NCBI RefSeq assembly: GCF_003334385.1
Contig: NZ_QOWN01000072.1
Length of the DNA: 7,350 bases
Direction: 5' to 3' (one strand)
Source: Escherichia coli
GTDB taxonomy: Bacteria; Pseudomonadota; Gammaproteobacteria; Enterobacterales; Enterobacteriaceae
Part shown: positions 2,293-5,645 of the stretch, piece after piece
Layout of the letters: each line of letters begins with the position of its first letter
Numbering within the stretch: the first letter of the stretch is position 1
Position numbers and translations under genes: made by a program
Notes under the pieces: model-generated
Seen by the model: the letters and a program-made list of their open reading frames with translations, nothing else
What the model was told of the DNA's origin: nothing
Database searches by the model: none

Positions 2293-2583
2293 TTAACAGC
2301 TTTTGTTTGGATACTGCCTTCGTGAGTGAACTACATTTACGATCTCGATGTTAGATGCTGTTACTCGGTAAAGTATTATGTAGTTAGGATGGGTCACTAT
2401 CTCACGAAGGCCTAGAGCTCTTTCGCTTGGTGGATACAGGTAAGGGTGTTCAGTAAGTGACAAAACTGATGTTTCAATGCGTATTTTTAGTCTACGTGCA
2501 GCGGGAGGGTTTTCCTTGGCAATATAGGCTACGATCTGACGCAAATCATCACGCGCAGAAGGTAGCCATAAAATGGGCAGCAT
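2293..2583 (-). CDS. parE: type II toxin, RelE/ParE family (ParE-like), 96 aa
   Basis: ORF track 2293..2583 (-). Translation MLPILWLPSARDDLRQIVAYIAKENPPAARRLKIRIETSVLSLTEHPYLYPPSE...GLREIVTHPNYIILYRVTASNIEIVNVVHSRRQYP matches the ParE/RelE pattern from memory. Its ATG overlaps the antitoxin stop (TAATG). Resembles parE of the prophage paaR-paaA-parE systems; paralog number cannot be determined. Confidence 0.85.
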   Translation of the reverse strand: MLPILWLPSARDDLRQIVAYIAKENPPAARRLKIRIETSVLSLTEHPYLYPPSERALGLREIVTHPNYIILYRVTASNIEIVNVVHSRRQYPNKSC

Positions 2584-2774
2584 TACTCACTCCTGTTCGT
2601 CGAAGCTATTTGCGCAATAAGGTTTTCCATTTCAGCCATTACTTCGTCATGCGGAATTGCAGGACGGGGGTCTGCGAGGCTTGCTGCCACTTTGGTGCGT
2701 AACCATTCGTTATAGCTGTTTTCTTGTTCGATTGTTTCAAATTCTGAAATTATCGGGGAAAGGACTGTACTCAT
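2583..2774 (-). CDS. paaA: small antitoxin (63 aa), PaaA-like partner of the ParE toxin
   Basis: ORF track 2583..2774 (-). Lies immediately upstream of, and is translationally coupled to, the ParE-family toxin. GAGGAGG SD 7 nt before the ATG at 2774. Acidic 63-aa protein, the size I recall for PaaA2. Assignment rests on context and length, not a search. Confidence 0.7.
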   Translation of the reverse strand: MSTVLSPIISEFETIEQENSYNEWLRTKVAASLADPRPAIPHDEVMAEMENLIAQIASTNRSE

Positions 2775-2791
2775 GTTCTAACCTCCTCAGA

Positions 2792-3292
2792 TTAGGCGCG
2801 ACGACCTTTTTGCGCCTCTAGCCACCGCGCAACGGTTTCTTCAATTGATTCTTTTTTCTCCTTCATTTCCTTAAGCATTTTCTCTTTGTCTTCTTTTGGG
2901 AAAGCCCTGAACGTCTGGATCAAATCTCGCTCTATAGGTTCTATATTAAACGGAAGTTCGTTTTCCGATTGTTCCATCTCTGCGGGTAAAGCGACAACAT
3001 TATCCTGCTGCAGTTCTTGGGGGTACATCCTTACAATTCGTAACAAGTCTGCCATATCTGGTCTAATTGACTCAGGCGGAACTTGTAGCAACCCAGCGAA
3101 CTTGATAACAGCCTCTAGATTTAAAGGTGTCTGACCATTTAGATAATGGCTTACTGCCCCTTGTGTCGAAAAACCCAGAATTTCTGCCGCACGCTCTTGG
3201 GTTAACCCAAGTTGAGTTTTTTTCGTCGTCCAGATTTCTTTCAGTCTCTGGGCGGCTTGCAGGTCGATCTCTGACAGGGGTTTTCTTTTCAT
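2792..3292 (-). CDS. paaR: HTH (XRE/Cro-CI family) transcriptional repressor, 166 aa; candidate prophage immunity repressor and regulator of the toxin-antitoxin operon (PaaR/RacR-like)
   Basis: ORF track 2792..3292 (-). N-terminal HTH LGLTQERAAEILGFSTQGAVSHYLNG. No LexA/S24 peptidase-like C-terminus. Divergent from the ydaS/ydaT pair across an operator-containing spacer. Stop lies 17 nt before the antitoxin start. Confidence 0.85.
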   Translation of the reverse strand: MKRKPLSEIDLQAAQRLKEIWTTKKTQLGLTQERAAEILGFSTQGAVSHYLNGQTPLNLEAVIKFAGLLQVPPESIRPDMADLLRIVRMYPQELQQDNVVALPAEMEQSENELPFNIEPIERDLIQTFRAFPKEDKEKMLKEMKEKKESIEETVARWLEAQKGRRA

Positions 3293-4153: not shown

Positions 4154-5191
4154 ATGGCTAATGCCTGGCTCAGATTGTGGCATGACATGCCAAATGACCC
4201 CAAGTGGCGAACGATTGCCAGGGTATCAGGACAGCCAATCGCAACAGTGATGGCAGTGTATATCCACCTTCTGGTGAGCGCGTCACGAAATGTCACGACA
4301 TGTCACGGCGTGTCACTACGTGGTCACATTGATGTCACGACGGAAGATTTAGCAAGTGCGCTTGATGTGACGGAAGACGTAATTGATTCAATTTTGCATG
4401 CAATGCAGGGGCGGGTTCTGGATGGTGACCTTATTTCCGGATGGGAAAAACGTCAGGTGCTGAAAGAGGACAATGGTAACGTTTCGCAAACGGCAAAATC
4501 CCCGGCAGAGCGCAAGAGAGCGCAGCGGGAGCGCGAAAAGCTGCGGAAATATGATGCTGATTGTCACGATGAGTCACGACGTGTCACGCATCTGTCACGA
4601 CAAGTCACGACAGATAAAGATACAGATACAGAATTAAACCCCACACATAACGCGCGCATGCGCGAGAGTGCTCCAACCGGTGAGTCGCATGGTGCGCCGT
4701 TGCAGACAGCCGAACCTGAATACCTGGACGGCCTGAGCGAACCGATCGGGAAATTTTCGATGACTACTGTCTGGCAGCCGTCGTCGGATTTTCGACAACG
4801 GGCAGCAGTGTGGGGTATGGCTCTGCCTGAGCCGGAATTTACACCTGCTGAGCTTGCCGCATTCCGGGATTACTGGATGGCGGAGGGGAAGGTTTTCACG
4901 CAGGTTCAGTGGGAGCAGAAATTTGCCCGCCACGTGCAGCACGTCAGGGCACAGGTAAAACCAGTCAGCAAGGGGGTAAGCCATGCAGCATCAGGTGGCA
5001 CGGCATCACGGGCAGTTCAGGAAATCCGGGCAGCACGCGAACAGTGGGAACGTGACAACGGATTTATCAGCAACGGAAACGGCCTGGAAGCTGTGGGAGC
5101 TTATGGGGGAGGTGTATTCGAACCGCTGGACACAGAAGAACGGGGCCGCACCTTCGAAGCTCTGGATTGCCCAGATTGGCGCGATGACTGA
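4154..5191 (+). CDS. replication initiator, lambda-O-like: replisome-organizer N-terminal domain, internal iteron-encoding segments, C-terminal region resembling a DnaT-like domain (345 aa)
   Basis: ORF track 4148..5191; preferred start is ATG 4154 with GAGGTG SD at 4145-4150. N-terminus WLRLWHDMPNDPKWRTIA is typical of phage replisome organizers. C-terminal TVWQPSSDFRQRAAVWGMALPEPEFTPAELAAFRDYWMAEG looks DnaT-like (from memory). Two iteron arrays lie inside the gene. Confidence 0.85.
   Translation: MANAWLRLWHDMPNDPKWRTIARVSGQPIATVMAVYIHLLVSASRNVTTCHGVSLRGHIDVTTEDLASALDVTEDVIDSILHAMQGRVLDGDLISGWEKRQVLKEDNGNVSQTAKSPAERKRAQREREKLRKYDADCHDESRRVTHLSRQVTTDKDTDTELNPTHNARMRESAPTGESHGAPLQTAEPEYLDGLSEPIGKFSMTTVWQPSSDFRQRAAVWGMALPEPEFTPAELAAFRDYWMAEGKVFTQVQWEQKFARHVQHVRAQVKPVSKGVSHAASGGTASRAVQEIRAAREQWERDNGFISNGNGLEAVGAYGGGVFEPLDTEERGRTFEALDCPDWRDD
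4281..4342 (+). repeat. iteron array 1: six direct repeats of a TGTCACGAC-like unit at 10-11 bp spacing
   Basis: GTCAC cores at 4282, 4292, 4302, 4312, 4323 and 4334. A degenerate GTGAC copy follows at 4367-4371. The array encodes SRNVTTCHGVSLRGHIDVTT within the initiator. Confidence 0.6.
4561..4640 (+). repeat. iteron array 2 (five TGTCACGAC-like repeats) with adjacent A/T-rich GATACA repeats; candidate origin core
   Basis: GTCAC cores at 4563, 4573, 4583, 4594 and 4604, followed by gataaagatacagatacagaattaaacc (4613-4640). Layout parallels lambda ori (iterons plus an A/T-rich region inside the O gene). Confidence 0.6.
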
Positions 5192-5645
5192 ACAGCAAAT
5201 CCGGCTGGTCTGCCGTCAGTGCATGGACCGCTGCCGGGCGGGTGAAACGTGGCCCCCAGACCTGGCTGAGTTTGTTGCACTGATTTCGGAGAGTGGGGCA
5301 AATCCATTTGGTCTTACGGTGGATGCAGTGATGGAAGAGTACCGGCGCTGGCGCAATGAATCCTGGCGATACGACGGGAGTGATAAATACCCGTGGCCAC
5401 AGCCTGTGCTGTACCACATCTGCCTCGAAATGCGTACCAGAGGGATTGAGCGCCAGATGACGCAGGGTGAGTTAAAACGACTTGCGGAACGGCAACTGAC
5501 GAAATGGGCAAAGCATGTTGGTAACGGGATGAGTGTTCCGCCAGTGCGACGACAACTGGAAGGGGCGAAACACCCGCAAGGGCCAACGCCAATTGAACGG
5601 CTGAAACAGGAATACGAACGCCGGAAGGCAGCTGGTTTTATTTGA
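4983..5645 (+). CDS. replication protein, lambda-P-like helicase loader (220 aa as drawn; start uncertain)
   Basis: ORF track 4983..5645. Segments WPPDLAEFVALISE, KYPWPQPVLYHI, ELKRLAERQL and SVPPVRRQLE align with lambda P as I remember it. ATG 4983 has the best SD (AGGGGG, 6 nt) but overlaps the O-like gene by 209 nt. Alternative starts are ATG 5103 (weak SD) and ATG 5184 (ATGACTGA overlap with the O stop). Confidence 0.75.
   Translation: MQHQVARHHGQFRKSGQHANSGNVTTDLSATETAWKLWELMGEVYSNRWTQKNGAAPSKLWIAQIGAMTEQQIRLVCRQCMDRCRAGETWPPDLAEFVALISESGANPFGLTVDAVMEEYRRWRNESWRYDGSDKYPWPQPVLYHICLEMRTRGIERQMTQGELKRLAERQLTKWAKHVGNGMSVPPVRRQLEGAKHPQGPTPIERLKQEYERRKAAGFI

Follow-up and report, generated by a model that had tools for sequence, protein, structure and literature searches.

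The initiator gene, its repeats and their surroundings

The window analyzed here, a 7,350-nucleotide stretch of Escherichia coli DNA, shares 99.2% identity with a prophage in E. coli JNEC-KY176 and has the gene order of a Rac/CP-933P-like lambdoid early region. To the left of the initiator gene lie dicB and an exonuclease gene, together with a minus-strand RelE/RelB toxin-antitoxin pair and a CI-like repressor gene; a Cro-like gene, a CII/YdaT-like gene, the initiator gene, a P-like helicase loader gene and then DUF1627 and further genes follow in that order. The initiator gene is in the expected early-right context, preceded by CI-like, Cro-like and CII/YdaT-like genes and followed by the P-like loader gene. 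The RelE/ParE-RelB pair (window 2293-3292, minus strand) is directly downstream of the CI-like repressor gene, an order matched by the paaR2-paaA2-parE2 arrangement of CP-933P (PMC8630535). The features of the initiator region are listed in Table 1.

Table 1. Features of the initiator gene and its immediate neighborhood (window coordinates)
Feature	Position	Strand	Remarks
Replication initiator gene, 345 aa	4154..5191	+	ORF; PHROGs 'replication initiation protein' (phrog_1408, phrog_3729)
Initiator domains			winged-helix aa ~11-100; basic helix aa ~117-142; DnaT-like aa 201-267
Array 1	4281..4342	+	six direct 10-11-bp units, core GTCAC(G); encodes aa 43-63
Inverted iteron unit	4364..4374	-	GTGAC at 4367-4371 on the + strand
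Basic helix codons A-E-R120-K121-R122-A-Q124-R125	4502..4543	+	K121 codon 4514-4516; candidate iteron-reading helix
Array 2	4561..4611	+	five direct 10-11-bp units, core GTCACG(A/C); encodes interdomain linker; proposed origin-proximal initiator-binding array
A-rich tract GATAAAGATACAGATACAGAATTAAACCCC	4612..4642	+	purine-skewed, low GC; proposed DNA-unwinding element; mosaic junction of N- and C-terminal modules
GC-rich palindrome CGCGCATGCGCG	4653..4664	.	directly past the A-rich tract
P-like helicase loader gene	5184..5645	+	start overlaps initiator stop codon; PGAP 'replication protein P'; phrog_109 'P-like helicase loader'

The PGAP name for the initiator is 'DnaT-like ssDNA-binding domain-containing protein', and Pfam identified DnaT (PF17948; E=9e-17) alone, at aa 201-267. 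The NCBIfam DnaT model PRK02854 scored 94.6 bits against a cutoff of 201 and covered aa 194-269 only; a score below the cutoff, taken with the Pfam domain, indicates that the initiator contains a DnaT domain and is not a DnaT orthologue. The N-terminal 160 aa matched no Pfam family, either here or in 73 diverse relatives. Phage_rep_org_N (PF09681) gave no match at E≤0.001 among the 73 members, the best being E=0.03 in 1 of them, and some GenBank and PGAP records nonetheless carry the name 'replisome organizer'. The initiator was ruled out as a lambda O homologue by BLASTP (E=2.1), by hhalign against the O N-domain (probability, 0.2%) and by Pfam (no Phage_rep_O match). The term 'O-like' therefore denotes functional analogy, not homology. 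The loader is a distant homologue of lambda P (25% identical, E=1e-6).

An AlphaFold2 model built on the 73-sequence alignment had a mean pLDDT of 79.8. The winged-helix core (aa 11-100) was confident, with pLDDT above 90 outside aa 41-60, and was followed by a flexible linker and then by a helix (aa 117-142; pLDDT 86) carrying an R-K-R-x-Q-R motif. Array 1 encodes a loop or beta-hairpin between helix 3 and the HTH, modeled with lower confidence (aa 46-58; pLDDT 78-80 over the array 1 segment), which agrees with the placement of the first array in the coding region of the N-terminal DNA-binding domain by the first-pass annotation. The residues encoded by array 2 and the A-rich tract, aa 136-163, separate the N-domain/basic helix from the DnaT-like domain. 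A PDB sequence search with the initiator returned no match. A fold search of the first model against the PDB returned weak winged-helix matches (CRP/FNR/MarR; best E=0.17), which support the label 'wHTH-like' and no closer assignment.

On the plus strand, the GTCAC(G) cores of array 1 lie at 4282, 4292, 4302, 4312, 4323 and 4334 (spacing, 10, 10, 10, 11 and 11 bp) and those of array 2 at 4563, 4573, 4583, 4594 and 4604 (10, 10, 11 and 10 bp). The distance from the first unit of array 1 to the first unit of array 2 is 281 bp, and the gap between the arrays places array 1 229 bp upstream of array 2; a single inverted copy, GTGAC, is found 33 bp past the last direct unit of array 1. The earlier description of six and then five direct repeats, with its coordinates, was accurate. 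A motif count across the window identified GTCAC as the longest periodic chain of any 5-mer at 9- to 12-bp spacing, with six units. In 1000 first-order Markov simulations, the longest such chain had 2 units in 912, 3 in 86 and 4 in 2, and none reached 5. The periodic arrays are thus far beyond chance. A third binding site elsewhere in the phage was considered and rejected, as the complete 40-kb genome of phage Evi, including its immunity region, contains no periodic GTCAC chain of at least two units beyond the two arrays.

The A-rich sequence AGATAAAGATACAGATACAGAATTAAACC (4612-4640) runs straight on from array 2. GC content over 4600-4639 is 0.325, the lowest in the gene, and A strongly outnumbers T on the top strand there (AT skew, +0.56), so the A/T-rich stretch noticed earlier after the second array was borne out. 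Array 2, the tract and the gene that carries them have the generic layout of an iteron origin, that is, at least three phased direct repeats adjoining an unwinding-prone tract, with the initiator encoded in cis. The 36 bp past array 1 are neither low in GC nor purine rich (0.53 for each). An AAACCCC box is present after the purine tract (4636-4642), and an A[CT]CCCC box, usually encoding N-T/P-P, occurs within 90 bp past array 2 (median, ~44 bp) in 19 of 75 relatives. DnaA boxes were not enriched and none was found at the proposed origin, nor did any other host-factor site back the assignment. Counts of promoters and terminators in the region were at chance level, and no promoter was associated with array 1. 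On the minus strand, each TGTCAC iteron reads as a -35-like GTGACA, and one promoter-like match (4560-4587), which was not significant, is made of array 2 sequence.

Selection on the repeats and their distribution among relatives

A period of 10 bp does not divide evenly into codons, and the reading frame therefore changes from one unit to the next. The six units of array 1 encode S-R, V-T, C-H, S-L, G-H and V-T, in all three frames, and those of array 2 encode C-H, S-R, V-T, S-R and V-T. It had been suggested that the repeats impose repeated VTT-type motifs on the protein; that they shape the protein is upheld, but not as a repeated motif, since the core is read as SR, VT, CH, SL and GH. A peptide-repeat reading was accordingly rejected, as the reading frames rotate along the array. 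Among 80 close relatives, unit 3 of array 2 begins at gene position 429 or 430, a register shift that converts RVTH to ICHD and keeps GTCAC.

Synonymous sites were compared in 12 dereplicated genes of the GTCAC clade (Escherichia, Pseudomonas and Aeromonas phages and uncultured viral contigs), using homologous columns with a conserved amino acid. Of the eight array 1 core codons (GCG, TCA, GTC, ACG, GGT, CAC, GTC and ACG), seven were fixed in 12/12 genes and the first ACG in 11/12; the GTG codon of the inverted unit was likewise fixed in 12/12. Elsewhere, the major synonymous codon usually accounted for a fraction of 0.25 to 0.75 (array 1 cores versus the rest, Mann-Whitney p=1e-6). Judged by these comparisons, the arrays are conserved as DNA rather than as protein.

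Relatives were collected by tblastn and two IMG/VR scans, which yielded 160 loci. Array 2 was searched for as de novo periodic 5-mers in the 70 codons after a conserved W..RQPKRED motif, with zones defined by MAFFT. It was present in about 72 of 78 dereplicated loci, with the core GTCAC, GCAAC, GTGAC, GAAAC, GTAAC, CGAAC or NAACGCCA. Together with a polypurine, low-GC tract, it was found in nearly all of ~75 diverse relatives; across the family, the sequence past array 2 often reads ...TAGAGAAGAG..., and the 36 bp past the array have medians of 78% purine and 42% GC versus 55% and 61% for the genes. This near universality suggests that array 2 marks the origin proper. Array 1 is restricted to some clades and is absent from many that keep array 2, and would thus be dispensable for origin function as such. 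On this comparative evidence the two arrays are not equivalent, one being family-wide with a tract and the other clade-specific without one.

Phages of Pseudomonas, Aeromonas and Ralstonia, as well as uncultured phages, carry both arrays at homologous positions. When the cores of arrays 1 and 2 were classified independently and de novo, they agreed in 32 of 33 loci. The apparent exception, L155 (IMG/VR; zone 1, peptide FGFDASVTLRDMSVTT), lacks array 1 at the usual loop and instead carries three inverted cognate GTGAC units at ~11-bp spacing after the first HTH helix; with L155 counted as a match, agreement is 33/33 across four G-NN-AC types (TC, CA, TG and AA, i.e., GTCAC, GCAAC, GTGAC and GAAAC). 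In sequence, the L155 array looks like an independent gain of a cognate accessory array. Both arrays also match in L007, which in the 5-mer analysis has a fifth type, CGAAC. The inverted unit is at +33 bp in 13/13 GTCAC-clade loci and covaries with the cores, being GTTGC instead of GTGAC in the GCAAC-type Ralstonia phage Hennie. The Hennie peptide differs just as expected from the altered core in each frame (VT to AT, GH to GN, CH to CN and SR to QR).

Unit number varies by slippage, with 4 or 6 units in array 1 and 3 to 6 in array 2. Array 1 is expanded in five IMG/VR loci (L115-L118 and L124), to as many as 9 direct and 5 inverted GTGAC units, with a loop ~20 aa longer, and L124 has palindromic GTGACGTCAC units in both arrays. 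In two close relatives from IMG/VR (L041 and L047), a sixth 10-bp unit in array 2 (gene positions ~409-465) shifts the frame and leaves a 157-aa product (...QVTTSHDR*), so iteron slippage also inactivates the gene in some prophages. The 12-bp GATAAAGATACA unit (DKDT; window 4612-4632) is present in 1 to 4 copies among near-identical relatives (L026, L028 and L031-L034), making the putative unwinding tract length-polymorphic. The N-domain with both arrays was found in 2197 of 5426 complete E. coli genomes (~40%), including O157:H7 and UTI89; most of these copies are of the Evi type, a variant with four units that is shorter by 21 nt.

The N-domain and both arrays are homologous to those of the Evi, Tritos and 689R5 phages, up to ~4632, and from ~4612 onward the sequence is homologous to Rac-SA53 ydaU-ydaV. 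In Rac-SA53 the N-domain is of another type (DUF1376) and GTCAC repeats are absent, and the GATACAGATACAGA...AATTAAACCCC...GCGCG tract is the same; the palindrome CGCGCATGCGCG has the counterpart GCGCGCGTGCGCG there. These two boundaries place a recombination joint within the A-rich tract. As far as the homology boundaries indicate, the iterons travel with the N-domain and the basic helix. Mosaic joints are classically seen at lambdoid origins.

Covariation of initiator residue 121 with the iteron core

All alignment columns were tested against iteron class (G-NN-AC) in 64 dereplicated sequences. The K121 column was the most informative (MI/H, 0.91), and the next best was Q124, three residues on. 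Lys at residue 121 accompanied a central TC in 27/27 sequences, Ser accompanied CA in 16/16, Thr accompanied TG in 9/9 and Val accompanied AA or TA in 10/10; Gln occurred twice, once with TC and once with TA. This pairing lends indirect support to binding of the repeats by the initiator. All 73 sequences have R120, and almost all have R125. Within each class the residues around position 121 have diverged deeply, while the class-specific residue itself is kept.

A crude neighbor-joining tree was built from columns excluding the basic helix and the arrays. On this tree iteron class switches at least 17 times, each time together with residue 121, a count of independent co-switches that block recombination could inflate, as codon 121 is only ~40 bp upstream of array 2. 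A possible interpretation, which we hold tentatively, is that this initiator family reads its iterons via a single basic alpha-helix in which residue 121 sets the dinucleotide of G-NN-ACG (K, TC; S, CA; T, TG; V, AA/TA), assisted by the +3 position (Q/H/Y/F), and that some clades carry an accessory array within the coding sequence of their own DNA-binding domain, where the site dictates the loop sequence. If true, recognition would follow a simple, reprogrammable code. Such a one-residue rule of protein-DNA specificity could be of use in orthogonal origin/initiator pairs and in predicting replication incompatibility between coresident prophages.

Candidate origin, competing readings and known systems

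We consider it likely that 4281-4642 is the replication origin of this Rac-like lambdoid E. coli prophage, located inside the initiator gene, with array 1 as an accessory array for the same protein. The initiator-binding iterons suggested at first pass thereby gain comparative support from arrays at homologous positions, cores that switch in lockstep and frozen synonymous sites. We infer initiator binding, tract unwinding, DnaB loading and the sign of array 1 action as follows. Initiator protomers would sit side by side on one helix face of the phased 10- to 11-bp repeats, which are probably read by the basic alpha-helix R120-K121-R122-x-Q124-R125 attached to the winged-helix domain. Array 2 would form the origin-proximal platform, and the adjoining purine-rich, low-GC tract is the likely site of unwinding. 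Host DnaB would be recruited there by the DnaT-like domain at the C terminus together with the neighboring P-like loader, in the manner of lambda O and P. Array 1, with its six direct units and one inverted unit, may serve as an accessory platform that works together with array 2, either through looping or through a higher local concentration of initiator.

Alternatively, array 2 could be the origin and array 1 a negative-control site that holds back production of the initiator or firing of the origin, for instance while the phage is a prophage. Bound initiator could pair the two arrays (handcuffing, as in P1 incA and F incC), be titrated by array 1 or block pR transcription through the replication genes. 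As a whole, this alternative is unlikely but deserves serious consideration. The core of array 1 is that of array 2, yet no low-GC, polypurine tract adjoins it; array 1 is clade-specific and dispensable; and proteins bound along it, in the 5' portion of the initiator gene, could stand in the way of RNA polymerase. There is also precedent in plasmids P1 (oriR/incA) and F (ori2/incC), which have two arrays of one iteron, an initiator encoded in cis and one array adjoining the unwinding region. The second array, outside the minimal origin, has been shown to be inhibitory in these plasmids. Array 1 has the layout of incA and incC, being composed of the same iteron, outside the minimal origin and without its own unwinding element. 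The plasmid arrays differ in that they flank the initiator gene and have 19- to 22-bp iterons, whereas both arrays of the window are inside coding sequence. Against negative control, limiting copy number is of no obvious use to a phage that replicates lytically, and no promoter is associated with array 1. As roles for array 1, helper and negative control carry roughly comparable weight.

The accessory-array reading treats the repeats as sites for the initiator itself. It is very unlikely that they are instead operators for another protein, such as the Cro-like, CII/YdaT-like or CI-like regulator or a host factor. Regulator genes do lie directly upstream, but the arrays move with the initiator N-domain among differing neighbors and into Pseudomonas, Aeromonas and Ralstonia hosts, the core type covaries with the initiator's own residue 121, and the repeats are found nowhere else in a complete related genome, its immunity region included. 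Highly improbable, too, is that the arrays are two independent origins. Five or six iterons per array would be enough for an origin in other systems, but a conserved low-GC polypurine tract follows array 2 only and many relatives keep array 2 without array 1; we rejected this reading on the lack of such a tract at array 1. It is hardly credible that the repeats lack any function as DNA and are peptide repeats, slippage-generated or protein-driven, which the loop and linker tolerate: slippage does change unit number, to the point of frameshifts in L041 and L047, and the encoded segments are modeled with lower confidence, but one DNA core encodes different peptides in three frames, synonymous positions are fixed at the cores, a register shift alters the peptide and keeps the DNA, and both arrays and the inverted unit switch core type together.

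The likeness to the lambda arrangement of ori inside O, proposed at first pass, stands for layout, with array 2 and the tract at the linker, a P-like loader gene next and two arrays instead of one, and fails for homology to O. As in lambda, the candidate origin is inside the initiator gene, at the linker between a DNA-binding N-domain and a loader-recruiting C-domain; an A-rich, purine-skewed tract comes after the iterons (in lambda, by inspection of the sequence); the P-like helicase loader gene is immediately downstream; and the N-domain-plus-iteron module is swapped as a unit, with the joint at the origin. Lambda differs in its nonhomologous initiator and in its iterons, of which there are four, each of 18 bp with internal dyad symmetry, ~20-24 bp apart, compared with the 10- to 11-bp direct units of the window. 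The second array in the N-domain coding region and the DnaT-like C-terminal domain are features of the window. The best reading is therefore of a putative lambda-like origin inside the gene of a different initiator family, with an accessory second array.

Two other phage systems offer partial parallels. Satellite phage P4 has two separated clusters of a short repeat, ori and crr, that are bound by one initiator, a primase-helicase, and both contribute to one origin; these clusters are kilobases apart and outside the DNA-binding-domain coding region of the alpha gene, whereas both arrays of the window are within one gene. In Bacillus phage SPP1, oriL lies in gene 38, with repeated AB boxes and an AT-rich unwinding element within the organizer gene, and the organizer G38P also binds a second site with the same boxes, oriR (PMC5737612). 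An origin embedded in the organizer gene and a second site for the organizer (both predicted in the window), as well as an organizer without an AAA+ domain, are common to SPP1 and the window. The two systems differ in that oriR is in a discrete, distant region of the genome and array 1 is ~230 bp upstream in the same gene; the window's initiator has no significant Phage_rep_org_N match, and host clade and partner proteins differ as well.

None of the GenBank records inspected annotates an origin here, and a literature search (oriJ/Rac, iterons and replisome organizer, DnaT-like prophage replication, non-lambdoid Stx phages, and Burkholderia and Pf-5 prophages) yielded no description of this origin, although one in older subscription papers is possible. 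If our preferred reading is right, it would identify both origin and specificity determinants of a prophage replication module that ranks among the commonest in enterobacteria and pseudomonads, account for where mosaic joints form in these initiator genes and provide a clean case of a DNA site overriding protein-coding constraint in three reading frames.

In Rac-SA53 ydaU (L002, 2441-2473), whose C-terminal half is shared with the initiator described here, a perfect 10-bp inverted repeat, TGTTCAAACA / TGTTTGAACA, occupies the place of array 2; from its sequence and position it is a candidate binding site for the DUF1376-type initiator, possibly relevant to Rac oriJ. The Evi initiator (L003/L171, 22368-23438) shares the N-domain and both arrays and has an unrelated C-terminal half; LygF comes next, and there is no P-like loader gene. 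In Pseudomonas and Ralstonia relatives, primase/helicase or DnaB genes come after the initiator. Because the C-terminal half and the neighbors differ in the Evi type, the same putative origin module appears to be coupled to different solutions for helicase recruitment.
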